A stretch of 42,655 nt of DNA from an uncultured Pseudomonadota bacterium. Lineage in GTDB: Bacteria > Babelota > Babeliae > Babelales > CAZZPM01. The position numbers were made by a program, and so were the translations under genes. The notes below the pieces were generated by a model. It worked only from the letters and a program-made list of their open reading frames with translations. It was not told where the DNA came from and did not search any database. The stretch is from assembly GCA_964655535.1 (NCBI GenBank), contig CAZZPM010000001.1, forward strand, positions 1-42,655, written 5' to 3'. Position 1 is the first letter of the stretch, and the number at the start of each line of letters is the position of its first letter. Positions 1,596 through 29,007 of this stretch are shown piece by piece.

Positions 1596-2879
1596 TTATC
1601 CTTCTTGGATAATTCCAAGATTTGCCCCCAAAAAAATTAATTTTTTTTCAAGCCCATCATAAGCTCGCTGCCATTGATGCAATCCAATAATTTTGGTTTT
1701 TCCTTCAGCAGCAAGTCCAGCCAAAACTAATGCACATGATGCTCGAATGTCAGGAGCAATAACCTCAGCTCCATACAACGTATCAACACCTTTAATTTGT
1801 ACAGTTTGATTATTAATCATGGTAATATGTGCGCCCATTTTTTGTAACTCACGAACATGCATTAAGCGATTTTCAAATACTGTTTCTTCTACAATACAAC
1901 TTCCACGCGCCATTGCTTGAACTGCCATCATCGGTGCTTGTAAATCAGTCGGAAAACCAGGATAAGGACCTGTTTTAAACGAAACAGCTTGCGGATCTTC
2001 TGTTGAATGAAAGGTGATGCCTTGTTTACCTGGTGTTGTAATAATCGTATGCCCCATTTCTTGTAACTTTAATAAAAAAATATCCATATCATATGGTCGA
2101 GCATTATTCAAAGTAATCGAACCCTTAGTCATTGCAGCAGCAAGAAGTAATGCTCCTGCTTCAAGTCGATCAGGAAGAATTTCATATTCTATAGAATATA
2201 ATTGACTAACACCGGTAATAATTATTGTTGCTGGCGCACTTGTTTCAATCTGCGCGCCCATTTTTTTAAGAACCAGAATTAAATCAAGAACTTCAGGTTC
2301 AAGCGCTGCATTAATAATAGTTGTTTGTCCCGGTAATAATGTTGCTGCCATTAAAATATTTTCAGTCGCACCAACACTCGGATATTCAAAAATAATGCGA
2401 TTATTAAGATTACTGTTTACGGACATTGTTCCAATAATACTGTGAGTCGTTTCTTCAATAGCAACACCGAGCGTTTTAAAACCTTTTAAATGATAATCTA
2501 TCGGCCGCGCTCCAATCAAACAACCTCCTGGATTTGCAACGATCGCTTTTCCAAATCGAGCAAGCAATGGTCCCATAGCAAGAATTGATGCGCGCATTTT
2601 ATTCATAATTGAAGGACAGATAGTCTCGCTATGTAAAGACCTTGTATCCACCTTCATAACATGTGTTTCTACAGAAAAAGTAATCAATGCACCCAATGAT
2701 TCTAAAAGCTTAATCATCAATTGCACATCGGTTGAATTAGGGACATTGTACAATGTTGATACGCCTTCGGTTAATAATAACGAAGTCATGATAACAAGTG
2801 CGCCATTTTTTGCTCCAAAAAGATCAACTGATCCTGACAAGGGACCCGATTGATTAACTTGTAAATATTGATGTGTCAT
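1596..2879 (-). CDS. murA: UDP-N-acetylglucosamine 1-carboxyvinyltransferase
   Basis: GAKNGALVIM near the N-terminus and PGGCLIGARPIDYH (the Cys-containing active-site loop) match MurA along the full length. Start set at ATG 2879 (MTHQYLQVNQSGPL...), because the 48 codons the ORF track adds upstream overlap dapF and look non-homologous. Confidence 0.9.
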   Translation of the reverse strand: MTHQYLQVNQSGPLSGSVDLFGAKNGALVIMTSLLLTEGVSTLYNVPNSTDVQLMIKLLESLGALITFSVETHVMKVDTRSLHSETICPSIMNKMRASILAMGPLLARFGKAIVANPGGCLIGARPIDYHLKGFKTLGVAIEETTHSIIGTMSVNSNLNNRIIFEYPSVGATENILMAATLLPGQTTIINAALEPEVLDLILVLKKMGAQIETSAPATIIITGVSQLYSIEYEILPDRLEAGALLLAAAMTKGSITLNNARPYDMDIFLLKLQEMGHTIITTPGKQGITFHSTEDPQAVSFKTGPYPGFPTDLQAPMMAVQAMARGSCIVEETVFENRLMHVRELQKMGAHITMINNQTVQIKGVDTLYGAEVIAPDIRASCALVLAGLAAEGKTKIIGLHQWQRAYDGLEKKLIFLGANLGIIQEG

Positions 2880-3699
2880 AAAAAAATTCCTCTGATAAAA
2901 ATCCATTAAAAGAATAAAAAACTGGCGCTTGCAAAAAAAGATATTTTTCAAACACAAAAGCCTGTATCGATCCGCCTGCTGTAATAAAAGTATAGTTTTG
3001 CTTATTATCTTGATGCATACCATGCAATAGAGTCATTGTTGCTAAAATAGCAGACGAACAACTTTCAGTAAAGCCGACTCCTCGTTCATACGTGGTAATA
3101 AAAATTTGATTATCTTGTATATCAATCCATGAAATATTATGATCTGGAGCATTTTTTTTTACTTCTATCAACAGATCATCATGAATCATTTGTGCTTGAG
3201 AAAAAATCAAAAAATGTGGATTACCCACAGCAACAAAGTATCCATCATACAAAATATCATGAACCGAAAATTGTACTTTATTTTGAATAACACCAAGCGG
3301 ATAATGCGTCTCAATAAAATCTTGATTTTTTTTACACAAAATTTCTTTGCCTGCTATCTGAATTACTATTTCATGACGTGCATTCATTTTTAAAAGATGA
3401 CCCGCAAGACAACGAATGCCATTTCCTGAAAACTGCCCATCTGAACCATCGGCATTTTGAACCAATGCTTGCCAATAATTTTCTATAGCTGTTTTTTGAA
3501 AAAAAATAATTCCATCCGCTCCAACACCTGTTTTGCGACAACAAATTTTCTCAGCACGATGATTCTCAATTAGCCCTAAATGCTCTATTAAAACAAAATC
3601 ATTTCTTAAAGAATGATATTTAAAAAAACAGATATTTTTTTGATAATGACTACTGTTGATATCGTCTATTTTGTAAAGCAATGTAGCCTCGTGGAGCAA
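2854..3699 (-). CDS. dapF: Diaminopimelate epimerase-like protein (DapF fold), with Ser at the first catalytic Cys position
   Basis: DapF hallmarks are present: RNDFVLIE (GNDFV box), NADGSDGQFSGNGIRC, VGNPHFLIF and ERGVGFTESCSSA. The start is uncertain: ATG 3699 overlaps the upstream transporter by 50 nt and gives about 25 more N-terminal residues than typical DapF. Confidence 0.7.
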   Translation of the reverse strand: MLHEATLLYKIDDINSSHYQKNICFFKYHSLRNDFVLIEHLGLIENHRAEKICCRKTGVGADGIIFFQKTAIENYWQALVQNADGSDGQFSGNGIRCLAGHLLKMNARHEIVIQIAGKEILCKKNQDFIETHYPLGVIQNKVQFSVHDILYDGYFVAVGNPHFLIFSQAQMIHDDLLIEVKKNAPDHNISWIDIQDNQIFITTYERGVGFTESCSSAILATMTLLHGMHQDNKQNYTFITAGGSIQAFVFEKYLFLQAPVFYSFNGFLSEEFFYDTSIFTS

Positions 3700-5290
3700 A
3701 AAGAGTAATTAATGAAACTATAAAAATAGTAGCACTCCATTCATGCCATGATGTTGCATATAATGATGCCCATCCTAACAACAAATACGAACAAAAAACA
3801 GAAGCTATTTGTGGCATAGTGTACCATAATTGCGCCTGCATAAAATCAATATGATACGCACCTGAACAATTTGAAGCCATTACTGTTACATCAGCAATCG
3901 GAGAAATTTGATTTCCCATTAACGAGCCTGAAATAATTGCTCCCATCATAATAAATAAAAGCGGGGCGCTTGCTGGTAAAATCGGTGCTGTCAAATGTAA
4001 TAATTGAACTGCAAGTGGCAATAAAATACCGAGCAATAAACCAATTGCTGCCCATGCTGACCCAATACCTATGGTCATTCCAACCGCCATAATATATGCA
4101 AATGCTGGTAAAAAAAGTGGCGAAATTGTCTGAGGAAAAATAGATGCCAAATAGAGCCCGGTTTTCAAATCATTTTTAACAATGTACGTTAGTGTCCACG
4201 CTGCAGTGAGCATAAACAAAGTTAATACCATTAAATTGCACCCTTCATGAAATAATTGAGGCAACTCCGAAAATAATACTTTCTTACGAATCAAAAGCAA
4301 ACTTGTTGTCATCAATAAAGTAATCAAGCCAGTAATCCCGAGAGCTTGTGATGCTTGCGCTGTTTTAAAAGAAACCATAATTGAAAGCGTCCCTCCAAAA
4401 CAAGCGGCTCCCCCTGTGTACAACAAAGCACAAAAAAGAAAAAAAACTAATAATGCAAGCGGAATAAAAAAATCAATTTTTGATGCTTGCGCTCTATTTT
4501 TTTCTGGTGTTGAAGCAATGCTTACTTGAGGACTTACTTTTCCACCCCAAACATTTCCCGTTTCATGTGCAATGGTATATTGACGATGCAAAGGCCCAAA
4601 TTTTACCGGAACAAAAATATATGTCATCATATTTGCAATTGATGACCATGCTTGAATAACACAGGGAATAATCAAAAAGAACGCATACATTGGTTCAATA
4701 GCAATTAAACTCTCTTCTTTCATTCCAATACCGATTACGCCCAGTTGCCCTATAATTTCAGCTCCCCAACTTGAAAAGGGAAGAATCGCACATAAAGTTG
4801 TTGAAAGGCTGGTAATAATAAATGCAAGTTGAATACGAGGTATTTTAGCATGGTCAGTAATTGTTTTCATCACTGAACCGACCGTTAACGTGCTAAAATA
4901 ATCATCAATGCAGAGTAGAAAAGCAAGAATCACTGTTTTAATGGAAGCCTGTTGAACCGATAAATGTTTATTATTTTTCGCTGTTGCATACGCATACGCT
5001 CCCCCTGAATGAGTAATTAAAGTAATCAAACAACCAAGGCAAAGTAAAAAAATAAACATCATTAATGCAGAACTGTCATATATCATTCTTAATGAACATG
5101 TATCAGTCAAACCCAATGCCATTTTAATTTTTTCAAAAACTAATCCAAGTGCTAAAAATAATGCACCTTCTGTTAAAATTAATGTTGCGCTCAAAATCCC
5201 CAACATCAATGATGGCAAAATACGTTGAGTCATCAATGCCGAACAAATAGTTAAAAAGGGCGGTACCAATGAAAAAATAGAAGGATTCAT
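3650..5290 (-). CDS. Polytopic inner-membrane transporter (about 12-13 TM; possibly NhaC-type antiporter superfamily)
   Basis: 546-aa ORF made almost entirely of hydrophobic helices, with one central hydrophilic loop (QYTIAHETGNVWGGKVSPQVSIASTPEKNRAQASK). The family assignment is a guess from size and topology only. Confidence 0.5.
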   Translation of the reverse strand: MNPSIFSLVPPFLTICSALMTQRILPSLMLGILSATLILTEGALFLALGLVFEKIKMALGLTDTCSLRMIYDSSALMMFIFLLCLGCLITLITHSGGAYAYATAKNNKHLSVQQASIKTVILAFLLCIDDYFSTLTVGSVMKTITDHAKIPRIQLAFIITSLSTTLCAILPFSSWGAEIIGQLGVIGIGMKEESLIAIEPMYAFFLIIPCVIQAWSSIANMMTYIFVPVKFGPLHRQYTIAHETGNVWGGKVSPQVSIASTPEKNRAQASKIDFFIPLALLVFFLFCALLYTGGAACFGGTLSIMVSFKTAQASQALGITGLITLLMTTSLLLIRKKVLFSELPQLFHEGCNLMVLTLFMLTAAWTLTYIVKNDLKTGLYLASIFPQTISPLFLPAFAYIMAVGMTIGIGSAWAAIGLLLGILLPLAVQLLHLTAPILPASAPLLFIMMGAIISGSLMGNQISPIADVTVMASNCSGAYHIDFMQAQLWYTMPQIASVFCSYLLLGWASLYATSWHEWSATIFIVSLITLFAPRGYIALQNRRYQQ

Positions 5291-5380
5291 ATCAAAACTT
5301 TCAATATTAATTTCAAAAAATAATAATTTTCTATCCTGTATTACTATATCGATTTATCATCGAATAGAAAAGAGTTTTTC

Positions 5381-6433
5381 TTACTTTTTAACTAAAAAAT
5401 ACGCTTCTGCATTTTCAGCAAATGATTTAATTTGTTGATTAAAAAGAGACTCCTCGGGACAAAGGCCTAAAAATATATCAAGTTGATACTGATTATTTTT
5501 AAATGCACCACCGGTATCAATCAAAAAACCAAGTGCTCGCTGCTGCTTATTATTTAAAGGATTTTTAATATTCAATGCCAACAATGAACCCATACCTAAA
5601 TTATGAATATCTCCTGCAAAACAAGCATTTTTTGTTTCTAACATATGAACCAAATGATGCTGAGCCATCGTTGCAATATTTTTTATTTCTCTAAAAAACC
5701 AGTATCGTTTCTGCTGATGAACTGGTTTTTTACTTTCATATGCATATCGATTATGAGTATGGGCATACAAAATTCGTTCTTTTTTATTAGGCATTGTCAC
5801 AATAACTGTGCCATGCATCAATGCATGCTCAAGACCTTTTTTAGTAACCCAAACAAGTGGTTTATAATGCTGAATATATTGATCAAGTTTTCCTGCAATA
5901 ATTTCTTGTTTCGTTAAACGAACATGTTTTTGATAATCACGATCTTCATATAACGCGCATGAAAAATGGTCTGTTTTGTACATTGATCCAGGAATTTTAA
6001 ATGCAGCATATTTTGTTAATAAAATTTTTTTATTTAATTCTTCTTTAACAGATGGTGGAAATGAAGCGCGCCCAGCATCAGCTTGCTCAATATTTGGTTT
6101 CCATGAAATCCACTTAAAATGTTTTTCAAGAAATGCAGTATTTTGAAGCCGACTTGTAGAACGTCCTGCACGTTGATCTTCATGCATAACATCAGCAATA
6201 AAGTGTAATGTTCGCTCACGATCTTGTGCAGATATTCCATATTTTTTATACAATAAATGGCCTGTGCTTTTATGTTTTTTAAAGCGAGCAGAAGCAACTT
6301 TAACTGCTTTTATCAGTGAATCATCTGAAGTAATTGATACAATACTATTTTCTTTTTTTTCTATTTCTTTGCTCGTTAATGTAGCTGCTGAATGCAACAG
6401 ACAAAAAAATAAAAAAATATATAAATTCATCAT
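5381..6433 (-). CDS. mltA: MltA-like lytic murein transglycosylase (3D domain), secreted
   Basis: N-terminal signal peptide (MMNLYIFLFFCLLHSAA). The C-terminal FLIDTGGAFKNNQYQLDIFLG matches the DTGGAIKG..D.F.G 3D-domain signature of MltA. AAGGAG RBS lies 7 nt upstream of the ATG. Confidence 0.65.
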   Translation of the reverse strand: MMNLYIFLFFCLLHSAATLTSKEIEKKENSIVSITSDDSLIKAVKVASARFKKHKSTGHLLYKKYGISAQDRERTLHFIADVMHEDQRAGRSTSRLQNTAFLEKHFKWISWKPNIEQADAGRASFPPSVKEELNKKILLTKYAAFKIPGSMYKTDHFSCALYEDRDYQKHVRLTKQEIIAGKLDQYIQHYKPLVWVTKKGLEHALMHGTVIVTMPNKKERILYAHTHNRYAYESKKPVHQQKRYWFFREIKNIATMAQHHLVHMLETKNACFAGDIHNLGMGSLLALNIKNPLNNKQQRALGFLIDTGGAFKNNQYQLDIFLGLCPEESLFNQQIKSFAENAEAYFLVKK

Positions 6434-6451
6434 TAAAATCTCCTTGAAACG

Positions 6452-6487
6452 ACAAAGGGGGACCTCTATGACAGAATCCCCCTTTGT
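6452..6487 (-). terminator. Perfect 11-bp GC-rich stem-loop between the giant gene and mltA (possible partial terminator, processing or stabilising element)
   Basis: ACAAAGGGGGA (6452-6462), 14-nt loop, TCCCCCTTTGT (6477-6487). It lies 21 nt after the stop of the 1539-aa gene. On the minus strand it is followed by CGTTTCAAGGAG, which is only a short T stretch. Confidence 0.4.
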
Positions 6488-6507
6488 GCAGAATTATTAT
6501 CGCAATA

Positions 6508-9500
6508 CTAACGGCCTCTCATGCCTCCTGCAATCATTGCAAGTCCTGCATTATCAAATGTTTCTATTGATTCTTCTTCTTCAACTTTTTTCTTAACTGA
6601 TTTTTTAACAGTATTTTGTGCTATAGCAATAGCTTTTTTTTCTTGTTGTTGTGCTAAATATTTAGCTTGTGCATCTTGAGCCGAAAAAGGTATCAATGTT
6701 CGTACGCCGCTCGATCCACTTGATTGAAAAATTTCTTGCTCTAGCTCAGGAGCTTCTTCTTCGACTGGTTCTTCAATAACTTCTATATTCTCTTGATTGC
6801 TTTCATCTGTTAACTCTTCTTCATCATCAGACGCTGTACCTTCACTTGATTCATTTTCTTCATCTGTTACAACCTCTTCTTCGTCAGCAACTGAATCTTC
6901 TTCACCCGTAGTCTCAGTTTCTTCCTCAGATGTACCCTCTTCGCTAATAGTATCTGTTTCAACGGACTCATCAGCTGGCACAAAATCTGACAACAATGAT
7001 GGATAAACACGAACATTTCTAAAAGTTACAGGCGTTGTCCAACAACTTAATCCCACAGAAAGAACACCTAACAATGGATATGGGTCTTGCCATTCAAAAA
7101 GAGGAATATTATCATTATCACCCGCGTTATGCCAGAACGCAACTTTACCATCATGAATATTAATAGCATACTTGCTAAATTCACGTGGAGTTGCCATGCC
7201 ATTTGGCGCTTTTCTTATATCTGATCCTGGATGATTTTTTACGAAATCTTTTCTCAAATCATCTGCATTAAATACAGCTATTGGCGTTTTTGCCAGATTT
7301 TTACTACGAATAACAATTTTACGATTACTCACAGCACCAATGGCCAATTCATACAATTCAGCATCATTATTACGCATTGTAGTAAAGGCTTCTGGACTCA
7401 ATGCAATCATAACATCGCTTAATCCTTTAGCTTCAAATTCTATATATCCACGACCTTCTTCAGGTAATGCTTGATTAAACCATAAATAGAGTCCATATAA
7501 TCCTTTAAATGTAACTCCTTCTTCATTTGCATTAGTGAATAACTGTGTTGCAATATCTGACATCGCAAGTGCCCATTGTTGACGACGAGAAATATCATCA
7601 TTATTTGTTTTATCAAAAAGATACATATTATTATAAGCGGCAACAATAACATTTAATAAATCATTATACATTTTTATAGGTTGATCAACATAGTAAACTA
7701 ATAATTGATCAATACCATCTAACAATTTACGTTTAACAAAATCATCTCCCGAGACATAGGCATTATTCGCAAACAATGTTATGTTTTGATACGTTTTTAA
7801 CAATGCTTGAAATCCATCAGGTGTTTCAGGTGAAAGAAGATCTGCTTTTTCAAGCTCAGCATTGGCTCGTGCTAAATACTGTTGCATTGCAGGAGGCACC
7901 TCAGAACCGGTCGGTGATCGTTTAACAAAATCTTCTTGAAAAACATATTCTGTATCTTTTTCTTTTGCATAATCAACAGCTGCTTGCATTTTACCTGCTT
8001 TTGCTGCCAAAGCAATGCCCCCAGATCCTAAAGCAAGTCCAGCTGCTATTCCAATAGGCCCACCTAAAGAAAAGACAGGCGCCATCATTGCTATCACATT
8101 TGCTGTTCCTTGAGCAACTTGTGCTCCTACTTGTGTTGACAATCTTTGTTTTGTTTCTTTGCCAGAATCAAGTTGTTCATAAATTGCAGTACCATCTGTT
8201 TTTAAAGTAAAGCGGTATGAAATACTTTTACCCATGCCAGCTGCAGTGCCTGCAGCAAAAGAATTATTATCAGATTTTTCAGAAATACGAAGCGAAGATC
8301 CCATTTGTGACATTTGCAAGCGAACAGGTTCAACAACAACAACAGATGTTGGCATTTTAAAAGCATCGTATTGTTTGTCATATGACATTTGTGGATCAAG
8401 AAATCCAATTTCAACCGGTGGGGCAAGTTGTACATTTGCAACAGTTGCTTGACCATTAATTGCAGTAAGCCCAATATATTTAACCGGCATATCTTCTTCT
8501 TGATCTTCCCAAACCATAAAAGGATTTTCACCAATCATACCATGCCCGACAGAAATTGCACCTTGATTACAGCTTATCCAAAATGGCATTGCTTGAGCTG
8601 CATTGAAACGTGCGCCATATAATTTATTTTCGCTGACTAATGTATTTTTCCCATCTTTATGTCGACGAATTTGTGAAACGACAGGACCATCAGAACTTAA
8701 TAAAATTTCATAGCCATTAAATTCTTTGATGCCATCTTTTTCTTCAATGGCTAAACGAACTCGTACCATTCCTTCCCCTTGTATGGTGGAAAAAAACGTT
8801 CCTTCTCCTGGGGTACGCCATTGATTTGATAACCATTTTGATGTTCCTGATTTTTTTAAAGGATATGATTGTGGATCTGCTATAAAAATACGTCCTGGCG
8901 GAATAAATGATAAAGCGGGCATTGTTACTACTTCAGTAACTTCAATAGCAACAGGATCTATCGACTTAAATGAACTAAAGCCTAAATTACGTACTAATGA
9001 TTGTCCATTAGGAGCAACAGGCGGAGCAGCATCACGGCGCGCCATAAAAATATTACTTCCAGGGTAACCTTTACCAGCCATAATCAATCCATTGTCTATA
9101 GAAACCCAGTATAATTCGTACGCACCAGGAAGCGTTGCTGCACGAGGATCTCGATCAACAGAAACAGGATTTTCAAGAACGGTTTCTCCTTCTTTAAGCA
9201 CAACAGATTTTTTATTTCCATCACCACCAAAAATAATACGGTACAAGCATTCATTACCAACCTTTTCACCCATGACAACTTGTAAATCACCTTCAGATTT
9301 GGTAGATGCTCTAAATACAAGAGTTGCTTTACCTGGTGTTGCTAGTGATTTTTCAAGCCATGCATAACCACGTCCCCATAAAGATCCTAATTTTAAAACT
9401 TGTCCACGCACAAAGTCTGTTTCTGGCTTTTCATATGAATAACCACGAACTTCAGGATTACGTTTTAATGATAAGCCTGGCATAATACCTGACCCTGTTT

Positions 9501-11127
9501 TTACTGTAAATCCAAGTCGCTGTAAATCAACCGAAGAATTTCCAGCAATTTTAAATCCATTCTCACGCTTCGTCCATCGATAAGGAGTCATATCAAAAGA
9601 ATTAGCTGGTTCAATTTCTGAATCTTGAAATAAATCACCCTTCATCACTTGAAGTCCATCATCAGATAATTCCCCACCAAGTGCAACAACTTGAGCCTTC
9701 GATGTTATTGCAATACTTGCTAATGTTCCAGAAACAGGATTCCATCGTTGAAAATCTTTACTTGATATTAAACGTTGTGGAGCATAATCAGCACCAAGAA
9801 TAACAATATTGTCCATATCACCAACAGAAATAGAGGATGCTTTTAAACTATAATTAGGAATTGTCCATGCAGCATCACGCAATAAATATAAAGTTCCATC
9901 ATCACCAACAACCCAAACGGTTCCATCAACGCCAACAGAAACTTGTTTTGGATATCCATTGGGCAAATCAGACATTTCTTTCCATGTGTTACCAGTTCGT
10001 GTAACAACTTTCTTGTTTGTCGTGATTCCCCATATATTTTTTGCATTTGCACAAGCAACCATAGCAAGCGATATGCTATTATCAGGAATCCATCGAGCTT
10101 TACGCCAATCATATGTAAAGCAAATGCCATTTTGATTAACTGCATATGTTGTTTGATCTTCACCAATTGCGATTGATTTAAAAGGAGTTACTTCTCGATT
10201 ATTAGTATCTCGGACTGATAATAATTTCCATCCTTTACTAGAGTTATTAATATAAAAAATATTTCCTTTAGCACCCAGAAGTAAAATATGATCTCCTTGT
10301 GCAGCAATTTCAAAACCAAGCCCACCAAATAAAGATTTAAAATTTTCTGGATATACAGGGTTAGCAACAACTTCAATTTTAAATGCTGCAGCATCAGTTG
10401 CTCGTGCCAATTGCACGGGAGTACCTACACGTAAAGTACCATCAGGCGTTGAATGCATGCCAATCCAAGGATCTGCCCATTCTTTCCCTTGAGCATCTCC
10501 TTTTAATTTTGATTTCAAAAGAGGATCTGCTTCAAACATTTCACGATTAAAACGATTACCAACCTCAAGCCAACTTTTTGTCCATGCATTTTTTAACCAA
10601 ATTGTATCGGGTCGATCTGGATCTGCAAGCATTTCCCATTGAGCCCATAACTGATTTTCTTGATTAACAACAGCATCAGTACAAAAAACTTCTCCTGTGC
10701 CAAGCCATGCAACAACAGTAGAGCCTGCAAAAGATTTTTTATAACACGATCGAAGACCAATAATTGTTTTTCCATCATCATTAACATATTGTTGAATCAT
10801 AAAATGACATGCTGTATCATCAGGATTTTTTCCATCAGCTATTAAGCGAGCAATCCCATCTTGTTCAACAACACGAACATAAGGATTTCCTTCAACTTTA
10901 TTTGAACGAAGTCGAATAATACGCCCAGAAACTACTTTTGCTTGCAAATCTAACAGATCTCCCATTGCTGATTCAGCATATAATTCAGCATCAAAAGGAG
11001 TTTCATTTTTTATTTCACGAATATATGCAACTGCCTCTCCAAATTGAGTCATGCTCATGTATAATGAATGCCATGGAAACAGCAATACTCCCGTTAAAAA
11101 AAGTTTATATATACTTCTTTGATTCAT
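6508..11127 (-). CDS. Giant secreted mosaic protein (1539 aa): signal peptide, possible beta-trefoil, about six tectonin-like propeller blades, three farnesoic-acid-O-methyltransferase-N-like (PF12248-type) beta domains, glycine-zipper hydrophobic segment, helical region, polyacidic tail
   Basis: Uninterrupted 4.6-kb ORF with an N-terminal hydrophobic leader. Blade-like repeats occur at aa ~268-490 (e.g. KQVSVGVDGTVWVVGDDGTLYLL, KSIAIGEDQTTYAVNQNGICFTY, SSISVGDMDNIVILG). Three domains share a Y(E/R)I.(I/L).G...N..S.(I/V)(R/L) core followed by FW(I/V)S...G.I..G and PF..W.D: aa ~575-730, ~775-900 and ~1225-1375. Confidence 0.8.
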   Translation of the reverse strand: MNQRSIYKLFLTGVLLFPWHSLYMSMTQFGEAVAYIREIKNETPFDAELYAESAMGDLLDLQAKVVSGRIIRLRSNKVEGNPYVRVVEQDGIARLIADGKNPDDTACHFMIQQYVNDDGKTIIGLRSCYKKSFAGSTVVAWLGTGEVFCTDAVVNQENQLWAQWEMLADPDRPDTIWLKNAWTKSWLEVGNRFNREMFEADPLLKSKLKGDAQGKEWADPWIGMHSTPDGTLRVGTPVQLARATDAAAFKIEVVANPVYPENFKSLFGGLGFEIAAQGDHILLLGAKGNIFYINNSSKGWKLLSVRDTNNREVTPFKSIAIGEDQTTYAVNQNGICFTYDWRKARWIPDNSISLAMVACANAKNIWGITTNKKVVTRTGNTWKEMSDLPNGYPKQVSVGVDGTVWVVGDDGTLYLLRDAAWTIPNYSLKASSISVGDMDNIVILGADYAPQRLISSKDFQRWNPVSGTLASIAITSKAQVVALGGELSDDGLQVMKGDLFQDSEIEPANSFDMTPYRWTKRENGFKIAGNSSVDLQRLGFTVKTGSGIMPGLSLKRNPEVRGYSYEKPETDFVRGQVLKLGSLWGRGYAWLEKSLATPGKATLVFRASTKSEGDLQVVMGEKVGNECLYRIIFGGDGNKKSVVLKEGETVLENPVSVDRDPRAATLPGAYELYWVSIDNGLIMAGKGYPGSNIFMARRDAAPPVAPNGQSLVRNLGFSSFKSIDPVAIEVTEVVTMPALSFIPPGRIFIADPQSYPLKKSGTSKWLSNQWRTPGEGTFFSTIQGEGMVRVRLAIEEKDGIKEFNGYEILLSSDGPVVSQIRRHKDGKNTLVSENKLYGARFNAAQAMPFWISCNQGAISVGHGMIGENPFMVWEDQEEDMPVKYIGLTAINGQATVANVQLAPPVEIGFLDPQMSYDKQYDAFKMPTSVVVVEPVRLQMSQMGSSLRISEKSDNNSFAAGTAAGMGKSISYRFTLKTDGTAIYEQLDSGKETKQRLSTQVGAQVAQGTANVIAMMAPVFSLGGPIGIAAGLALGSGGIALAAKAGKMQAAVDYAKEKDTEYVFQEDFVKRSPTGSEVPPAMQQYLARANAELEKADLLSPETPDGFQALLKTYQNITLFANNAYVSGDDFVKRKLLDGIDQLLVYYVDQPIKMYNDLLNVIVAAYNNMYLFDKTNNDDISRRQQWALAMSDIATQLFTNANEEGVTFKGLYGLYLWFNQALPEEGRGYIEFEAKGLSDVMIALSPEAFTTMRNNDAELYELAIGAVSNRKIVIRSKNLAKTPIAVFNADDLRKDFVKNHPGSDIRKAPNGMATPREFSKYAINIHDGKVAFWHNAGDNDNIPLFEWQDPYPLLGVLSVGLSCWTTPVTFRNVRVYPSLLSDFVPADESVETDTISEEGTSEEETETTGEEDSVADEEEVVTDEENESSEGTASDDEEELTDESNQENIEVIEEPVEEEAPELEQEIFQSSGSSGVRTLIPFSAQDAQAKYLAQQQEKKAIAIAQNTVKKSVKKKVEEEESIETFDNAGLAMIAGGMRGR

Positions 11128-11154
11128 TATAAACTCCGAATTAATTTTTAATTG

Positions 11155-12060
11155 TTATTTTTTCTTTTTTGAATTTTTAGCATCTTTTTCTTCTGCTTCT
11201 AATAGTTTATTTTCATTAACAATCACTTGTAATACTTTTGGTAAAGCAACTAATTCTTCTTTTTCTTTTTTTTCATCATAACCCCATGATGAAGCATCAG
11301 GAATAATTCGATCATTATATTGACCTACTACAAATCCTGGCTTTTGCCTTACAGAAGATGCTTTTTTAAATCGTGAGCAACATGCTGTTGTTTCTATATC
11401 CCATCCAGCTTGTAATTCTTTAATTGTTTTTACAACAGGCGCATCCTCATATCCTTGCCTTAGAATACGAATATCTTTTGAAATAAGTAGTTTTTTCCAT
11501 AATTCATTGAGACGTTTTTGTATCTCTGGATTTTTTTCTACCTTAATATTGTTTGAATCAAGCGCAACAACAGTCCATAGCTGAAAATTTCTTGTTACAT
11601 CGACAACATTGGGGAGACGTCCATAGCGAGCATGTACAACTTGAAAAGGATTAGAAAAACGAGGAATACTCAATTTATTCTCACTCCAAGAGAATTGTTT
11701 TTTTGTTCCATCAGCAAATAAGAAAACAGCTAGACAGGCTTTTTTTTTTTTCCACGGATTAGACTGAAATAAAAAATTAGTCCAATTTTTACCAGATTTT
11801 GGATATCCTTTATTGCCCCAATTGATAAAATATGACAACAATCGATTAAAATCATTAGTAATATCTGTTCCATCTAAAAATGCTGATAAAACCCTACCTT
11901 TTTCAACAGTAATTACCGGTGGTTGCGCATTATTGATAGTAACTGAAACCGAAGTAGGAAGACTAGCTGAAACATTCGTTTGAACATTTTGCCGAGCTGC
12001 ACAAAGCAAAGAAAATAAATTTAAAATGAAAACAAAAAAATATTTGTCTATGTTTCGCAT
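11155..12060 (-). CDS. Secreted hypothetical protein (301 aa) with Lys-rich C-terminus, immediately upstream of the giant gene
   Basis: Signal-peptide-like N-terminus (YFFVFILNLFSLLCAA). GGGGG RBS lies 6 nt upstream of ATG 12060, and a 27-nt gap separates it from the downstream giant ORF. No family recognised. Confidence 0.6.
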   Translation of the reverse strand: MRNIDKYFFVFILNLFSLLCAARQNVQTNVSASLPTSVSVTINNAQPPVITVEKGRVLSAFLDGTDITNDFNRLLSYFINWGNKGYPKSGKNWTNFLFQSNPWKKKKACLAVFLFADGTKKQFSWSENKLSIPRFSNPFQVVHARYGRLPNVVDVTRNFQLWTVVALDSNNIKVEKNPEIQKRLNELWKKLLISKDIRILRQGYEDAPVVKTIKELQAGWDIETTACCSRFKKASSVRQKPGFVVGQYNDRIIPDASSWGYDEKKEKEELVALPKVLQVIVNENKLLEAEEKDAKNSKKKK

Positions 12061-12206
12061 CTAAACCCCCTTTTTTTTAAAAACAATTTAAAATCTTTGT
12101 AACACAATACATGAAAAATAACGGCTAAAACAAGTCTTTAAAGAAAACTTATTGAGCCTTCTCATTTTTGCTTGACAACTTTTATATCCATTGATACGAT
12201 CCAAGA

Positions 12207-12321
12207 CATAAATATAAAAAATGGGTTTTTTTAAAAAATTTAAAATCCCTAAATGAACAATACTCTATGTATTGTTCGCCCCCCAACCCTCCAGCTTTTC
12301 GTAGTTGGAGGGTATTTTTTT
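12207..12321 (+). ncRNA. Candidate small RNA (about 115 nt) defined by an orphan sigma70-like promoter and an orphan intrinsic terminator
   Basis: TTGACA (12172-12177), 17-nt spacer, TACGAT (12195-12200) on the plus strand. An internal hairpin GAACAATA/TATTGTTC sits at 12255-12277 and a terminator hairpin plus T-run at 12287-12321. No plus-strand ORF of 60 aa or more lies here, and both flanking genes are on the minus strand. Confidence 0.25.
12287..12321 (+). terminator. Rho-independent terminator-like hairpin plus T-run, plus-strand orientation
   Basis: CCCTCCA (12287-12293), loop, TGGAGGG (12306-12312), then TATTTTTTTTG. In the minus orientation the hairpin is followed by TTGGGGGG, so it is canonical only for a plus-strand transcript. 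Confidence 0.45.
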
Positions 12322-12338
12322 GTCATACTTTTAGATGC

Positions 12339-13874
12339 TTATCGCACCGCAGAAATATATGTTTGTAATAACTGCTTCCAACGCGTTGTTTTACCAAAAA
12401 CAGAATTTTGATACGTCGAATGTAAAGAGTTTCGTGGCCAATACATTGACAATCCTGATGCTTTCAAAGGATTACATCCGTGCACATTACTAATCACGCT
12501 TTCAATCACAAGCTGTTGAACATAATCAATTGCTTTTTGTAAAAAAATCACATCATCAGCAATTTCTGCCAATTTTTTAAATCGACTTACACGATCTTTA
12601 ATATTTTGTAAGGTATGTATAATATCAATATAATCACGATTAAAAAACGTTGTAGTCATTTTTCTACTGACACGAACAGCGTATAACATTTCAATAATCT
12701 CTTCACCATATTCACTATCAATTAATCTTAATAATGCAGCTGCAACATCATTCATTGCTAATTTTAATGCATATATTTTTTCTAAATTCAAAGCTGATAA
12801 GGTAAAATCAGCAAAAACATCTTTATATTCTTCTGCATATGCCTGTGTAATGGCAATAGCAAGTTTTTCTGAAGATAAAATTGACGCAGCAAGTTTTTTC
12901 AAAATTTTATTATAAGGAAGCCCATTTCCTGGAACAATCTCTTCTGATGCAACCATATATTTAGCTGAAAAATTAACCTGGCAGGCTATTTCAATCATGC
13001 TCATGAGGCAAGCATCAAATGCAATAATATCTATTTCACGTCCACCCAAAAGATCGTCTTGAATCCGTTCAATAACTTCAGTCAAATCAGTATTAGTCAA
13101 ATAAACTGAATGCTCTTCATTGAAAGCAATCCCTCTCTCGTTATCAATTGTTTCATTGCTTTCAATGTCATCAACTATTCCCATTTTTGTTAGAGGACGT
13201 AATTCAAGAAGACCAGTATTTTCATTAAAATTGAAAACATTTGAATCACGATCAAAAAACCAATTACGATCCCACATATGCGGATCAATTGCCCCTGATC
13301 CATGATTCCATAAAACAAGACAGATTTTTTTAGCAGGAAAATTTTGTATTCCCCACTCAAAAAAACGATATAAACTTTCTTGAGTACCACTAATAAATTC
13401 TTCAGTTGGCTCATGTTCTTCTAAAATTTTAATCTTTTTTTTGCCAACATAAACACGAGTAATCTCATCTTTACCCGATTCATCTACTTGAGCAATAACA
13501 TGAACATTCTGGCTCGAGCCTTCTTCACTCATACTTTTAAGATTTAATTTAACAAATTTCTGTAAATTGTTCTGACCTGCAATATAAACCATAAAAAGCC
13601 ATTCGCGCGGCTGCGATTCTTTAAAGTCATCGCTTTCTATTGTTACTGTTGGAGCTGTTATTGAAATTGATGTTGCTTGATTTATCTCTTCTGTAAAAGG
13701 CTTTTCTTCTACAGTTGTTGTTATACTTGCCTCACGAACAGAAAGTGGCACTTCTATAAAATCAATCTCTTTTTGCAATAAACGCAACATTGATCCAATC
13801 GCTGTTTCATTGCCAAAAAGCTGACTACTAAATAGTAGTATCAAAAAATAATAAAAAAAATAGATGTTCTTCAT
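12339..13874 (-). CDS. Secreted clostripain-like cysteine peptidase (family C11)
   Basis: Signal peptide (YFFYYFLILLFSSQLFG). Catalytic-dyad contexts LVLWNHGSGA (His) and IIAFDACLMSMIE (Cys) are typical of C11. AGGAG RBS lies upstream of ATG 13874. Confidence 0.7.
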   Translation of the reverse strand: MKNIYFFYYFLILLFSSQLFGNETAIGSMLRLLQKEIDFIEVPLSVREASITTTVEEKPFTEEINQATSISITAPTVTIESDDFKESQPREWLFMVYIAGQNNLQKFVKLNLKSMSEEGSSQNVHVIAQVDESGKDEITRVYVGKKKIKILEEHEPTEEFISGTQESLYRFFEWGIQNFPAKKICLVLWNHGSGAIDPHMWDRNWFFDRDSNVFNFNENTGLLELRPLTKMGIVDDIESNETIDNERGIAFNEEHSVYLTNTDLTEVIERIQDDLLGGREIDIIAFDACLMSMIEIACQVNFSAKYMVASEEIVPGNGLPYNKILKKLAASILSSEKLAIAITQAYAEEYKDVFADFTLSALNLEKIYALKLAMNDVAAALLRLIDSEYGEEIIEMLYAVRVSRKMTTTFFNRDYIDIIHTLQNIKDRVSRFKKLAEIADDVIFLQKAIDYVQQLVIESVISNVHGCNPLKASGLSMYWPRNSLHSTYQNSVFGKTTRWKQLLQTYISAVR

Positions 13875-13951
13875 TTTTTTCTCCTTTTTTTAAAAAATAT
13901 GTAGCATTAAAAATTTATAAAGAAAATAGGATAAAGAGCAAGAAAACTCAA

Positions 13952-15136
13952 TTACTGATATAGATTTTTCTTAATTTTATTTTGTATATACAAAGCATAA
14001 AAAGCTTCTTGTAGTGCCAATAATGTATAGGTTAAACCAAAACTTAATTGAAAATCTAAGAAAAAAAGAATATAAGGATTATAAAATAAAAACAATGCTG
14101 CAAGAGTAACTAAAAGATGTGGCAAATGATACGGACGCTGCATTAACAATGCCATCATCAAAAGCAAAAATGACCAGACGCCTCGCATAAAAGAAACAGT
14201 GCCAGGAGTAACTAAAACATAGACAAAAATAAAGGGTGCAACAAAGTAAATCCAATTTCGTTTTCGCCCAAAAAAATAATAAAAAATTGTTTTCCAAAGA
14301 AATACAAATAACATAATGTGTAACCCTGAACGGGCTAAATAATGAATAATCCCCCAATAATTAAAAACATGTTTTAATGGATCTTGAGGCAAAACTTTAT
14401 CAATGCCCAAAAATAAAGCCCCATATAACGTGCGCGCAGGCTCTTGTAAACTTTGATATAATGTTTTTACATTCTGTCGCATGTTCAAAAAATAACCTTG
14501 CAGCATTGTTTGATTATGATGTATTAAAAAACAATGTTCAGGTTTCAAATACAACCAGCCCCATAATTGTTCTTTAGCTAGATAAAGATCAAATTCTTTT
14601 TTTTGATGAAAATGTATTTTTTTTGATTCTTTAGTAATTAAAATATAATCACCTTCCTGATATTGTGCTGATTTTGAAATAGTACAACGAACATATCCAG
14701 ACAGCCACAAAATTTGATCATCAATACTATCAATTTTTAAAACATAGATTTGCAACCATTTTTTATCTGCTATCGATTGAATATCAATGATCGTTGCTAA
14801 TATTTTTTCTGCTCTTGCAATAGAAATCCGATGCTGTTGATAAAGCCATTGATGTCCTTGCATTACAACCAATCCCATACAAAAAGAACTCAGAATAAAA
14901 AAAAATCGATATTTTTTTTGCCCTATAAAAAATATAGTTAGCCCAGAACAGAGCCACGCACCCAGAAAAATCTCTGACCATGGTCGATAAAATCCAAATA
15001 AAATTCCAAAAACAAATGCCCAAAAACAAATGCCAACAAAAAAGATTTTTCGCTCATGTACCATACTATTTATTTTCGATGCTGCTTCATAACTTAAAAT
15101 ATAAAAATCTTGCACTCCTTTCATTCCATTTTTCAT
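13952..15136 (-). CDS. ComEC/Rec2-family membrane protein, short form (N-terminal OB-like part plus competence channel domain, no metallo-beta-lactamase domain)
   Basis: 394-aa polytopic ORF. WGIIHYLARSGLHIMLFVFL resembles the ComEC HLLAISGLH motif. The ORF ends directly after the last TM helices. Confidence 0.6.
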   Translation of the reverse strand: MKNGMKGVQDFYILSYEAASKINSMVHERKIFFVGICFWAFVFGILFGFYRPWSEIFLGAWLCSGLTIFFIGQKKYRFFFILSSFCMGLVVMQGHQWLYQQHRISIARAEKILATIIDIQSIADKKWLQIYVLKIDSIDDQILWLSGYVRCTISKSAQYQEGDYILITKESKKIHFHQKKEFDLYLAKEQLWGWLYLKPEHCFLIHHNQTMLQGYFLNMRQNVKTLYQSLQEPARTLYGALFLGIDKVLPQDPLKHVFNYWGIIHYLARSGLHIMLFVFLWKTIFYYFFGRKRNWIYFVAPFIFVYVLVTPGTVSFMRGVWSFLLLMMALLMQRPYHLPHLLVTLAALFLFYNPYILFFLDFQLSFGLTYTLLALQEAFYALYIQNKIKKNLYQ

Positions 15137-15164
15137 GCTAAAGAAAATTAATGAAAAGGCAAAA

Positions 15165-16409
15165 ATGAACTTTTTTTCTCATAAAATCAAAAAAATTGAG
15201 GCGCGATTCATTTTAGATTCGCGCGGATTTCCGACTATTTCCTGCGCGATGACTCTTTCATCAGGAGAGGTTGTTCATGCCAGCGTACCAACAGGCGCTT
15301 CAACAGGAAACTCCGAAGCAACACCTTTATATGATCAGAATGCAAAACTATTTCAAGGTAAAGGAGTTTTTAAAGCTGTTGAAATTATCAATACAAAAAT
15401 TAATGCTGCATGCAACAACAAAAAGCCATATCTTGACTCTATTGACCAACTATTAAAAGAACTTAATGCTGATCAAAATATTGGAAGTAATAGTATGTTA
15501 GCCATTTCTTTGGCAACACTCAAAGCAGAAGCATTACTTGGAAAACAACAACTCTACCAATATATTGCCCAGAAAACAAAAAATAATATTGTCCAGATGC
15601 CCCGCATTATTGCCAATGTTATCAATGGCGGACTCCATGCTGAAAATGGCATTATCTTTCAAGAATTTTGCTTGATAAATAAAGAAGGTTCATTTTCTCT
15701 AGAATCATTTTTTCAAATCATTGAACTCTATCATAATCTTAAAGCAGATCTTCAGCAAAAAAAAATCCCCCTTGCTGTTGGAGATGAAGGCGGGTTTGCC
15801 GCTTTTTGCACAACTCCTTCAACGGAAGAAATACTACAGTTACTTACTCAAATCATCAGCCAAAACAATTACACTTCAAGCATTGGACTTGGTATTGATG
15901 CTGCTGCTTCAACTTTTTATGATGCAAGCACAAAAAATTATTTCCTTGGAAACCAACAAAAAAATGCTACAACATTAACAGAATTCTACCAAAACATTAT
16001 TGCTCACTATGATCTCTTAATGCTTGAAGATCCCTTTTCTGAAGATGATACACATGCATGGCCGATACTTACTGAGCAATCAAAGAATACAAAAATTATT
16101 GGCGATGATCTGTACACCTCACATGAAAACCTTCTCAAAAAAGGTATTCAAGAAAAGAGTACTCATGGACTTATTATTAAGCCAAACCAAGTTGGGCTTA
16201 TGTCAGAAATCTTTAAAACTATTAAATGCGCCAAACAAAACAATCAAGTTATTATTGTTTCACATCGATCAGGAGAAACACTTGACTCATCTATCGTTGA
16301 TCTTGCTGTAGGAATAGGTGCCTGGGGAATAAAAATCGGAGCTCCCGCTCGAGGAGAACGAATCGTCAAATATAATCGGTATCTTGAAATACTCAAAATG
16401 TTCACCTAA
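15165..16409 (+). CDS. eno: Enolase (phosphopyruvate hydratase)
   Basis: ARFILDSRGFPT, GASTG, INGGLHA, GDEGGFA, LEDPF, GDDLY, IKPNQVG, SHRSGET and KYNR motifs occur in canonical order. Start set at ATG 15165 (MNFFSHKIKKIEARF...), which matches normal enolase N-termini. ATG 15135 is the alternative. Confidence 0.9.
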   Translation: MNFFSHKIKKIEARFILDSRGFPTISCAMTLSSGEVVHASVPTGASTGNSEATPLYDQNAKLFQGKGVFKAVEIINTKINAACNNKKPYLDSIDQLLKELNADQNIGSNSMLAISLATLKAEALLGKQQLYQYIAQKTKNNIVQMPRIIANVINGGLHAENGIIFQEFCLINKEGSFSLESFFQIIELYHNLKADLQQKKIPLAVGDEGGFAAFCTTPSTEEILQLLTQIISQNNYTSSIGLGIDAAASTFYDASTKNYFLGNQQKNATTLTEFYQNIIAHYDLLMLEDPFSEDDTHAWPILTEQSKNTKIIGDDLYTSHENLLKKGIQEKSTHGLIIKPNQVGLMSEIFKTIKCAKQNNQVIIVSHRSGETLDSSIVDLAVGIGAWGIKIGAPARGERIVKYNRYLEILKMFT

Positions 16410-21332: not shown

Positions 21333-23918
21333 TTAAAGCGATTGACGACTTGAAGGCTTCTTCAAAAAAATGCTTTTATTTTTTGTTGTTGCATGCAGAA
21401 TAGGCTGATTTTTTTTATCTTTGTCTACTGCATCTTTAGTATTCTTTTTTCTAAAAATAATCGGGTCTGGACGAACAATCTCTTCTTTTTTGCTCTGTTT
21501 TATTTTTTGTCTTTTTTTATAAGCTTCAAGTTTTAAATGTGGTTGAAAATAAGGATCCTTTTTAATATTAACCTCTGTTGGCTGATATTTACCTTCTTTA
21601 AAATCATCAATTGGTCTAAAAATACCTGCACGTACATCTTTTAATCGTTGTTTAACATCTTGATTACGGGGCTTAAAAAACCAACGTTGCACTGGATCTT
21701 TTGATCCCGAATACGCATCAACATTAAGCACTTGATATTTTGCATAATCAAGCTTCATTTGTGTATAATCATCAGGGTTTCCTTCATTGCGCGGCTTAAT
21801 AATACTTGGTCTAATAAAAACAAAGAGATTCTGTTTATTATGCTTACGCTGTCTTCCTTTAAATAAATTACCTAAAAGCGGTATTTTTTCCAAAAAAGGT
21901 GTATGCCAGAAACTTTGATCTTGTCTTGAACTACCAAGTCCTCCTAAAACAAGCACTTGTCCTTCTCCCATGCTTGCACGTGTATCAAGCGTTCGTAATT
22001 GGCGACCAGGCTGATCAGCTCCCGCTTGATCTACAAATTCTTCTAAATTAATCGAGATAGAGAGATCAATAATACCATCAGCATTGATGCGTGGTGTTAT
22101 TTTTAAAACAGTATTTGCAGATAAATCTGTCTGTGCAATATTAGATCGGACTCCCGTTCCGCCCACAAAATCACCTTTAACCCGACGAACTTCATTTGAT
22201 TGTATACTACATGCCTGACGATTATTAGCAATTAAAAAAGGCTGAGAAAGAATATTAGATTGTTCTTCTATTAATAAAGATCGAATATATAACCAAATGT
22301 TTCCTTCTTCAAAACTCGCTCCTGGATCTCCAACAGTAAATACAGCTGAACGTGAATCTTCAGATGGAGATCCTATCTGATTTGCTAAATTTGTATTTAA
22401 TGAATTAATAAATCCAGTTTCAGCACTTCTAGCTGAAGCTTGTGCAGATTGAAATTGAATACTATCTCCTAATATATTTGTCGTTGGATTACGCAACTGA
22501 GAACTTAATTCACGTGATAATTGTTGCGTAACATCAACAATCAAAATTTCAAGAGCAACTTGTGGATAACTTTTATCAATAATATCAATAAGTTTTTGTA
22601 TTGCAGGCCGCGCTTCTTTATTGCAAGCAATAATTAAACGATTGCCACAGCCATAATTTGCATCTTCTCCATTTTTAGGTGTTTCTGCAGCAATGACCAC
22701 ATCTTGAAAAAATTTAAAACTACTTAAACTCTGTTTATCAGTGCTTCCTGCAGGTGGACGAATTGCTTTTTCAATAATTGCCTTTGCTCGGTCAGCTTCA
22801 ACGTAACGAAGATTGATAATCATCAATCGTGAATCTTCTGCATCATCAGGACGATCAAAAACATACACAAACTCAATAATACGATCAATATCTTCTTCTT
22901 GTCCCATTAAAATTAAATAAAAACGCTCTGAATCTGCAATGACTTTAGTTGAAGATGAAAAATAGGTTGATTCTTTTTTTCCTGCTGCAGAAACAAACCG
23001 AATACTCTCTTGTTTTTGACCATTTCCTATAATTTCATTATTAAATAATTGTGCAATTATTTCAGGATCAGTATGTTGTAATTTAATCATTTTAATTGAT
23101 TGCCGAAGTCCACCTCGATCAAGCTCATTAATAATTTTCATAGCAAATTTAATAGAATTAGATTTTTGAGTCATAATAATAACATCTAAATCATGCTGCA
23201 CTTCAACCGTGTTGTCACCCAAAATATTAACCAATATTTCATTCGCCATCGCGGCTTTAATATTCTTTAAATAATACGTGTAGCGAATAATAGCATCAGT
23301 ATCAGGCAAATCTTCAGGCTCAATGCCTTGACTTGATGAATAATAGGGAATTGGATGTTGCTTAACCATTTGACGCTGAATAATACGATGCACGCCTGCA
23401 ACTTCAACCATGCTATAGCCATTTTTCTCAAGTAATGTATGAACTAATGCAAGGGCCTGACTCAACGTATATGGCTGTTCAGTTTTCACCGAAACTTTAA
23501 TCTGTTCTAAATTTTTTTCAGGAATAATATTTAATTTTTTACGATCAGTAATATAAGAAACAAGACTCGCTAAAGAAACATCTTCGAAATTCAAATAAAT
23601 ATCTGCCACCTCTTTTTTTTCAGGTACAACATTGCCAAGGCCCTGTTTATTTTTTTCAGCTGATGTTTTTTGCATCACTTCTTTATTTTCAATTGCTGTA
23701 ATAGCGTCATTAAGAAGTTGCTCTGATCGCAACTCTAAAGATTCTTTCTTTATATCATCATTTTTTTCAATTTCCCGCATTGCTTCTTCTACTAAAAATG
23801 ATGCATCTTCGTCAATCAAAGCTCTTTTTGCGAACACAAAATCTGTCGTAGTCATCAGACTGAACAATGTCCAAAAGAAAATTATTTTAATTCTATTCAT
23901 ATACTTCTTAAGCCTCAT
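21333..23918 (-). CDS. Secretin B (GspD-type: signal peptide, N0, N1-N3-like domains, secretin core, 150-aa charged C-terminal extension)
   Basis: N0-like IYLNFEDVSLASLVSYITDRKKLNIIP. Secretin core ends in GQVLVLGGL...TPFLEKIPLLGNLFKGRQRKHNKQNLFVFIRPSII. Its start overlaps the stop of the upstream gene by 1 nt (TAATG at 23916-23920). Confidence 0.85.
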   Translation of the reverse strand: MRLKKYMNRIKIIFFWTLFSLMTTTDFVFAKRALIDEDASFLVEEAMREIEKNDDIKKESLELRSEQLLNDAITAIENKEVMQKTSAEKNKQGLGNVVPEKKEVADIYLNFEDVSLASLVSYITDRKKLNIIPEKNLEQIKVSVKTEQPYTLSQALALVHTLLEKNGYSMVEVAGVHRIIQRQMVKQHPIPYYSSSQGIEPEDLPDTDAIIRYTYYLKNIKAAMANEILVNILGDNTVEVQHDLDVIIMTQKSNSIKFAMKIINELDRGGLRQSIKMIKLQHTDPEIIAQLFNNEIIGNGQKQESIRFVSAAGKKESTYFSSSTKVIADSERFYLILMGQEEDIDRIIEFVYVFDRPDDAEDSRLMIINLRYVEADRAKAIIEKAIRPPAGSTDKQSLSSFKFFQDVVIAAETPKNGEDANYGCGNRLIIACNKEARPAIQKLIDIIDKSYPQVALEILIVDVTQQLSRELSSQLRNPTTNILGDSIQFQSAQASARSAETGFINSLNTNLANQIGSPSEDSRSAVFTVGDPGASFEEGNIWLYIRSLLIEEQSNILSQPFLIANNRQACSIQSNEVRRVKGDFVGGTGVRSNIAQTDLSANTVLKITPRINADGIIDLSISINLEEFVDQAGADQPGRQLRTLDTRASMGEGQVLVLGGLGSSRQDQSFWHTPFLEKIPLLGNLFKGRQRKHNKQNLFVFIRPSIIKPRNEGNPDDYTQMKLDYAKYQVLNVDAYSGSKDPVQRWFFKPRNQDVKQRLKDVRAGIFRPIDDFKEGKYQPTEVNIKKDPYFQPHLKLEAYKKRQKIKQSKKEEIVRPDPIIFRKKNTKDAVDKDKKNQPILHATTKNKSIFLKKPSSRQSL

Positions 23919-29000: not shown

Positions 29001-29007
29001 AATACCC

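Follow-up and report, generated by a model that had tools for sequence, protein, structure and literature searches.

The 42,655-nucleotide (nt) stretch of contig CAZZPM010000001.1 analyzed here, which we call the window, carries on its minus strand at 6508..11127 an ATG-initiated open reading frame (ORF) of 1539 amino acids (aa), with a GGAG ribosome-binding site 8 to 11 nt 5′ of the start codon. This main gene, delimited from the ORF list and its translation, encodes a member of a multi-lectin family of the phylum Dependentiae (TM6). A signal peptide and a two-part N-terminal head precede a core of about 800 residues, in which two PF12248 domains, a small beta module, a Gly/Ala-rich segment with GxxxG motifs, a helical bundle, and a third PF12248 domain follow one another, and an acidic tail ends the chain. 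This architecture and the family that shares it are established here, as are the taxon to which that family belongs, the fold type of the PF12248 domains, and the constant pairing of the main gene with a small upstream gene, X. A word-indexed homologue search yielded three orthologues of 50 to 62% identity and identical architecture; with the main protein of the window they make up the four orthologues referred to below, the other three lying at loci L001, L003, and L004. Residues 1 to 24 (11056..11127; this and all further features of the protein are on the minus strand) form a probable Sec signal peptide, judged by sequence features only. In all four orthologues, basic residues and then a hydrophobic stretch open the chain, and the stretch stops just ahead of (D/Q)FG(E/D)(A/S), the first conserved motif of the mature protein; identity across the signal-peptide region is 17%, as against more than 43% in each folded domain. 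The 1539-aa protein is probably Sec-exported, as predicted from this N-terminus. At the other end, aa 1379-1539 (6508..6993), delimited by composition, comprise the acidic low-complexity tail and a short, weakly conserved C-terminus. This region is only 16% identical among the orthologues, aspartate and glutamate make up 41% of residues 1385 to 1480 of the main protein, and the composition of the tail differs in other family members; the acidic tail is disordered.

The main protein is one member of a large, unnamed, phylum-specific family. An exhaustive HMMER search of 1.84 billion cluster representatives with residues 25 to 1224 as the query matched 320 proteins at E ≤ 1e-3, 135 at E ≤ 1e-10, and 85 at E ≤ 1e-30, and its full-length alignments span query residues ~510 to 1200. 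The word-indexed search, run with the whole protein and then with a 30-sequence alignment, had returned only the four orthologues and two Tectonin proteins, probably missing the wider family because low-complexity tails filled its candidate list. A scan of a genome collection with the orthologue alignment gave no match, nor did a scan of metagenome contigs, and an exact look-up of the main protein sequence found no identical entry. Local hidden Markov models (HMMs) for each module, made from the four orthologues and applied to 157 fetched proteins, detected the core in fixed order in at least 97 of them, the main protein included. N-terminal to the core the heads vary, consisting of the N-terminal module seen in the window, of a Tectonin propeller, of both, of neither, or of long unrelated regions. 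A constant core with interchangeable heads fits assembly by domain shuffling, as an earlier note on this DNA, written from the sequence alone, had supposed. That note had also not recognized the combination of domains from any characterized bacterial protein. We found no characterized protein with the same architecture, every named relative being a "hypothetical protein." The main protein is nevertheless no isolated mosaic, as its architecture recurs widely in a single phylum, though annotated nowhere. All named members are assigned to Dependentiae, TM6, Babeliales, or an unclassified "bacterium," and we found no paper that ties PF12248 or Tectonin domains to Dependentiae. Neither the family nor its beta, helical-bundle, and N-terminal modules have been described before. 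Two other Dependentiae genomes carry tandem full members, of 1529 and 1485 aa at locus L085 and of 1215 and 1344 aa at locus L087. The L085 pair, at 3401-12458, lies directly 3′ of an ankyrin-repeat protein gene; the L087 pair, at 8001-15771, is followed by the gene for a 1032-aa protein with neither a detectable domain nor a match to the HMMs of the family modules.

The window itself also falls in this phylum. Of chromosomal origin and about 34% G+C, it comes from a Gram-negative bacterium and encodes MurA, LpxK, NusA, IF-2, enolase, signal peptidase I, and a type II secretion cluster. Its MurA is 60 to 62% identical to the best named relatives, all of them from "Candidatus Dependentiae" or "Candidatus Babeliales," and the family has its home in Dependentiae. 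Cultured members of the phylum are obligate intracellular parasites of protists (PMC6561590, PMC12172432), and in one of them signal peptides were found on 44% of coding sequences, a set enriched in proteins of unknown function (PMC6561590).

The three PF12248 domains are the best-resolved parts of the core. Pfam places them at aa ~588-702 (25.9 bits), ~782-891 (52.3 bits), and 1221-1372 (58.6 bits), within regions that we term FA1 (aa 576-705, 9013..9402), FA2 (aa 776-902, 8422..8802), and FA3 (aa 1216-1378, 6994..7482). FA1 lies just over the curated cut-off of 24.2 bits, a marginal assignment that is backed by cross-hits of the family HMMs; it is also the most conserved domain among the orthologues, at 76% identity. 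We modeled the protein with AlphaFold in two pieces, aa 905-1385 from four sequences (model 1) and the core, aa 566-1383, from a 16-sequence alignment (model 2). Model 1 gave a confident helical domain and third jelly roll. Model 2 had a mean predicted local distance difference test score (pLDDT) of 78 and a predicted template-modeling score of 0.73, with low confidence only at aa ~987-1075. The PF12248 domains reach pLDDT values of 80 to 95 (mostly 80 to 93 in FA1) and are modeled as beta-sandwiches of the galectin/LamG jelly-roll type. This assignment rests on Foldseek, which matched the FA1-FA2 pair to tandem-repeat galectins and laminin-G pairs in the PDB (E of about 5e-9), FA3 to galectins, GH16 glucanases, CBM66, and neurexin LNS domains (E of about 1e-4), and, among predicted viral structures, the core best to attachment proteins with ConA-like or LamG modules.

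These likenesses are of fold and not of family membership. The predicted fold and side-by-side layout of FA1-FA2 resemble those of galectin-8, galectin-9, Toxascaris galectin, and laminin-G/LNS pairs, but identity to galectins is only 8 to 12%, and the galectin family was matched neither in Pfam at E ≤ 5 nor in a profile search of PDB sequences. Likewise, the adenovirus galectin fiber, phage tail fibers, and the coronavirus spike N-terminal domain carry jelly-roll attachment modules on a large modular protein, as here, but the viral and phage receptor-binding proteins do so in a trimeric fiber or tail context that is absent here, and the match is confined to the jelly rolls. The Pfam name of PF12248, Methyltransf_FA, derives from the arthropod protein FAMeT, which occurs either as PF12248 joined to DM9/DUF3421 or as a short protein with two PF12248 domains (PMC10015273). 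The main protein shares the domain with FAMeT, CPAMD8, and the thioester-containing proteins of animals, and the tandem arrangement with the crustacean "2x pfam12248" type. It differs from them in being bacterial and in lacking both the thioester context and the DM9/DUF3421 partner; animal PF12248 proteins in turn lack the helical bundle and the glycine-zipper hairpin that the PF12248 domains flank here. With no DUF3421 match and with 1539 residues that include other modules, assignment to the arthropod FAMeT type was rejected. FAMeT, galectins, clostridial-type toxins, and Inc-type membrane proteins were each compared on a feature that defines them; in every case the main protein lacks it, and we assign it to none of these types. 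The presence of PF12248 also in CPAMD8-type thioester proteins fits a general binding module. Since the domain appears to be a generic jelly roll, the label "eukaryote-type" given to it in the earlier note tells where the Pfam family was first described and not where the present copies came from.

The head of the protein bears the second recognizable fold. A six-bladed Tectonin beta-propeller occupies aa 263-500 (9628..10341), where PF19193 scores 46.2 bits on the isolated region (aa ~357-476) and 38 bits on the whole protein against a curated cut-off of 30. A profile of the four orthologues matched the solved structure of Laccaria bicolor Tectonin 2 (5fsb) at E=1.3e-11 over four blades, and six blades of ~35 aa, between aa 271 and 499, align to the pattern h-S/A-h-G ... 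W/h-h-h ... G-x-h-h ... W (h, hydrophobic). On this sequence evidence the propeller belongs to the Tectonin family, and it and the three PF12248 domains, all over their Pfam cut-offs, lie nearly at the residues where the earlier note had placed them. Tectonin 2, the Physarum tectonins, and the horseshoe-crab and fish-egg lectins are likewise six-bladed and have the same repeat motif; they are, however, propellers alone, of ~230 aa, whereas the main protein, with 1539 aa and several domains, carries a propeller as one exchangeable head. Among the orthologues no other folded part is as variable as the propeller, whose identity is 43%. Between the signal peptide and the propeller, aa 25-262 (10342..11055), delimited by a local HMM, form a module to which no fold can be assigned. 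It recurs in at least 13 family members besides the four orthologues, in heads that otherwise differ, and gave no significant match to Pfam or to PDB sequences. A beta-trefoil or fascin-like fold, which the earlier note had suspected at aa 60-190, could not be confirmed for the module; a match to FRG1 (E=0.3, in 1 of 17 members) is noise.

Between FA2 and FA3 lie three elements, of which the first and the third appear peculiar to the family. The first (aa 903-1000, 8128..8421), recognized by a local HMM and in the model, is a beta module of ~95 aa that was detected in most core-bearing members and has no Pfam match; it is predicted to contain six strands, at pLDDT values mostly between 54 and 72 and lower toward the C-terminal end. 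The second (aa 1001-1050, 7978..8127), defined by hydropathy and by its position in the family, is the Gly/Ala-rich hydrophobic segment, predicted to form the tip of a helical hairpin, and corresponds to the membrane-active-looking internal segment that had been noticed from the sequence: a hydrophobic stretch is indeed present at aa ~1009-1043, with a Kyte-Doolittle maximum of 1.81 over 19 residues (family median, 1.57). The position of the segment is constant throughout the family, Gly, Ala, Ser, and Thr make up 50 to 70% of it, and its length ranges from ~40 to 110 residues. In the main protein it contains the glycine zipper G1022-x3-G1026-x3-G1030-x3-G1034, with no match to the Pfam Gly-zipper family. 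Across 69 non-orthologous family segments we counted 121 in-register GxxxG motifs, compared with 86 ± 7.8 in composition-preserving shuffles, none of 500 of which reached 121; the sequences are related and the statistic ignores their kinship, so the excess is supportive and not a strict test. A simple 19-residue sum on the Hessa scale is +4.0 kcal/mol in the main protein and exceeds 0 in all 74 members tested. Judged by these sums, the segment is not a classical transmembrane helix and should pass the Sec translocon without stopping in the inner membrane. A bilobed transmembrane domain like that of chlamydial Inc proteins was rejected, because the organism belongs to Dependentiae and the segment fails this estimate of translocon integration. 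Model 2 puts the segment, at low confidence, at the tip of two long helices. The third element (aa 1051-1215, 7483..7977) is a helical bundle of ~165 aa, seen in two independent models at pLDDT values of 80 to 94 in both and conserved family-wide. Its sole residue invariant in every family alignment is Asn1167, in the motif AYNNxYL. The bundle had no match of its own in Pfam, in the profile search of PDB sequences, or in Foldseek; the best PDB match, to PsbP (E=0.034), covers only 40 residues and is not a credible sign of relationship.

The genomic surroundings of the main gene are in part conserved. Gene X (11155..12060, minus strand), encoding a 301-aa protein with a signal-peptide-like N-terminus, lies directly upstream of the main gene across the 27-nt gap reported in the earlier note, and this pairing is kept at all four orthologous loci, where the other X proteins are 31 to 36% identical to that of the window. 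X matched nothing in Pfam or the PDB. Downstream, again at all four loci, lies gene Y (5381..6433, minus strand), encoding 350 aa with a signal-peptide-like N-terminus. Y carries the motif 'DTGGAFKNNQYQLD(I/L)F(L/V)G'. All its matches fell below threshold: three of the four Y proteins hit the 3D domain, at best with E=0.004, and one hit the MltA insert domain with E=0.0035. These hits suggest that Y is probably a very divergent MltA-type lytic transglycosylase missed by the Pfam and NCBIfam thresholds. A terminator-like hairpin (6446..6487, minus strand) with a minimum free energy of −23 kcal/mol (z = −3.2) separates the main gene from Y, and a hairpin of changed sequence stands at the matching place in the other three loci (L001 ~14510-14545, L003 ~14540-14575, L004 ~12935-12965). 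A T-run follows it in L001 and L003, and the copy in the window has no clear T-run. Because of this hairpin, the transcription unit likely consists of X and the main gene, with Y transcribed separately or by read-through; an operon of X, the main gene, and Y was rejected on the same ground, and the linkage of Y to the main gene is uncertain. Flanking genes other than X and Y differ among the loci, and neither X nor Y adjoins the more distant family members.

The earlier note had also pointed to a secreted C11 protease nearby. A C11 (clostripain-family) peptidase with a signal-peptide-like N-terminus is encoded at 12339-13874 on the minus strand (PF03415, 141.8 bits), but its gene adjoins the X-main pair in only three of the four loci; in L003 it is not at that position, where ATP synthase genes stand in place of the ComEC-like and C11 genes. 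The example of viral fusion proteins led us to ask whether this Arg-specific protease might cut the main protein just before the hydrophobic segment. We rejected the idea: the candidate site, KQR-L, occurs in three of the four orthologues and is not conserved family-wide, and the protease is not adjacent in L003. Just past the stop of the C11 gene, at 12286-12313, lies a strong 11-bp G+C-rich hairpin with a T-run on the plus strand and an A-run on the strand of the C11 gene. Given the strand of its T-run, it reads as a terminator for the opposite direction, and no plus-strand gene ends there. A possible route out of the cell is encoded ~10 kb from the main gene, where two secretin (GspD) genes, at 21333-23918 (861 aa) and 26121-29051 (976 aa), both on the minus strand, form a type II secretion or type IV pilus-like cluster with PilM/GspL-like and GspC-like genes at 23918-26124 and 29008-30192. 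Two gspD copies were found in all TM6 genomes analyzed by Yeoh et al. (PMC4776705).

We tentatively favor, as a reading that is quite possible though short of probable, that the main protein is a Sec-exported, multivalent, glycan-binding host-attachment protein of protist-dependent Dependentiae with a latent membrane-inserting hairpin. Cleavage of the signal peptide would accompany its departure from the cytoplasm, and it may leave the cell via the type II secretion system or packed in vesicles. Its head and jelly rolls would then attach to carbohydrates of the host surface or the vacuole membrane, as their folds suggest. The glycine-zipper hairpin, which appears not hydrophobic enough for the inner membrane to retain it, would later insert into a membrane and tether the bacterium or the protein to those of the host, a step suggested by its composition and position. 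The contrast between a propeller at 43% identity and FA1 at 76% is the style of evolution expected of a host interface, and the Foldseek matches to viral and phage receptor-binding proteins, tandem galectins, and laminin-G pairs point the same way. Several observations pull against this reading. Proteins also use jelly rolls and propellers for catalysis or to bind other proteins; the Gly/Ala-rich segment and its two flanking helices were modeled with low confidence, and in some family members the segment is merely weakly hydrophobic; the neighbors are housekeeping envelope genes (MurA, MltA-like, ComEC-like), which would suit a role in the bacterium's own envelope; and the argument from synteny is thin, because there are only four close orthologues.

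The role in the cell's own envelope is the alternative that survives best, and we consider it unlikely but serious. The protein would reside in the periplasm or at the outer membrane, held there by its hairpin as in some outer-membrane lipoproteins with glycine zippers, and its lectin-like domains would bind the cell's own peptidoglycan or lipopolysaccharide in a structural or cell-shape role. Conservation of the core across the phylum is compatible with such a function, as is the presence of LpxK and type II secretion genes beside those for MurA and the MltA-like and ComEC-like proteins, and a hairpin that does not act as a Sec stop-transfer segment could travel on to the outer membrane. Heads that vary, paralogues in tandem, and tails that evolve fast, however, are typical of proteins that face another organism and not of conserved machinery of the envelope, and the hairpin between the MltA-like gene Y and the main gene sets that neighbor apart. 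Tectonin 2, the nearest relative of the propeller with a solved structure, is a lectin according to both its deposition and the literature. Its targets are foreign glycans.

A pore-forming or self-translocating toxin, modeled on AB toxins or on alpha-helical pore formers, strikes us as distinctly unlikely. Here the lectin modules would bind a receptor, and the hairpin and helical bundle would insert in the membrane. The arrangement of a Gly/Ala-rich hydrophobic hairpin next to a helical bundle and lectin-like jelly rolls invites this comparison, and Foldseek aligned model 1 to botulinum neurotoxin chains over 334 to 363 columns. In the clostridial neurotoxin heavy chain, as in the main protein, a jelly roll comes immediately after a helical domain, and a hydrophobic element lies close by; the order of domains differs, and the protease light chain has no counterpart here, where no peptidase or enzyme domain was found. 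The alignments themselves are poor, with template-modeling scores of 0.17 to 0.19 by query and 0.08 by target, root-mean-square deviations of 19 to 25 Å, and E-values of about 1e-4, and the neurotoxins are not among the top 50 matches listed for model 2. We take the resemblance to botulinum neurotoxin as no more than an analogy of layout. Pfam detected no enzymatic cargo domain in the main protein, and among known pore-forming and translocation domains the helical bundle has no match. Dependentiae are not known to have a type III or type IV secretion system, and genes for neither can be seen in the window; self-delivery would be useful if the phylum lacks them.

We also entertain, as a rather improbable but consequential extension, that the core is a previously unrecognized machine for membrane insertion or tethering whose exchangeable lectin heads set the host range. 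If so, it would be a bacterial counterpart of viral attachment-and-fusion proteins, anchoring cells or secreted proteins in host membranes. Least probable of all, and in our view very improbable, is an enzyme, with the PF12248 jelly rolls acting as GH16-type glycoside hydrolases or transglycosylases, or as methyltransferases in keeping with the Pfam name: GH16 glucanases and other glycosidases do occur among the Foldseek matches, and an NCBIfam "glycosylhydrolase" model gives a weak match, but that match (16.8 bits against a cut-off of 175) is far under threshold and falls inside the propeller, the top structural matches are noncatalytic galectins and LG (laminin-G) domains, no methyltransferase or S-adenosylmethionine-binding family was matched in the main protein by Pfam, and the family-invariant residues, namely Trp, Gly, Phe, Tyr, and Asn, seem to be structural ones, with no conserved acidic catalytic pair seen.

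Dependentiae are a widespread and almost uncultured phylum of protist parasites, and a family present in several copies per genome is a concrete candidate for a determinant of host recognition and host range. It couples exchangeable lectin-type heads to a conserved core with two modules that lack known relatives. PF12248, known mainly from animals and named after a doubtful enzyme activity, emerges as what appears to be a binding-type module that is abundant in a bacterial phylum. The findings overturn no expectation; they should be useful to those who study Dependentiae and protist symbiosis, and the core offers a clean structural target.

Several features elsewhere in the window deserve mention. 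The enolase encoded at 15135-16409 on the plus strand is unusually divergent, being 34 to 40% identical to the best 80 of 591 bacterial enolases from the genome collection, a comparison that carried no taxonomic signal, and only 50 to 56% identical to the enolases of the sister loci. A 281-aa ORF with a TTG start at 2854-3699 (minus strand) overlaps the 5′ end of murA and the 3′ end of the Na+/H+ antiporter gene and is probably spurious. The 475-aa ORF extends ~50 residues beyond the N-terminus of annotated MurA relatives (88 to 92% of the query covered), suggesting that the true murA start probably lies downstream. Searches of the window for tRNA genes and Rfam families gave no match. Finally, a BatD-like protein of 820 aa with a C-terminal SH3_3 domain (39967-42429, minus strand) and a MoxR-type AAA ATPase (30281-31315, minus strand) may be parts of a Bat/aerotolerance-like operon, which would be notable in a reduced parasite genome.

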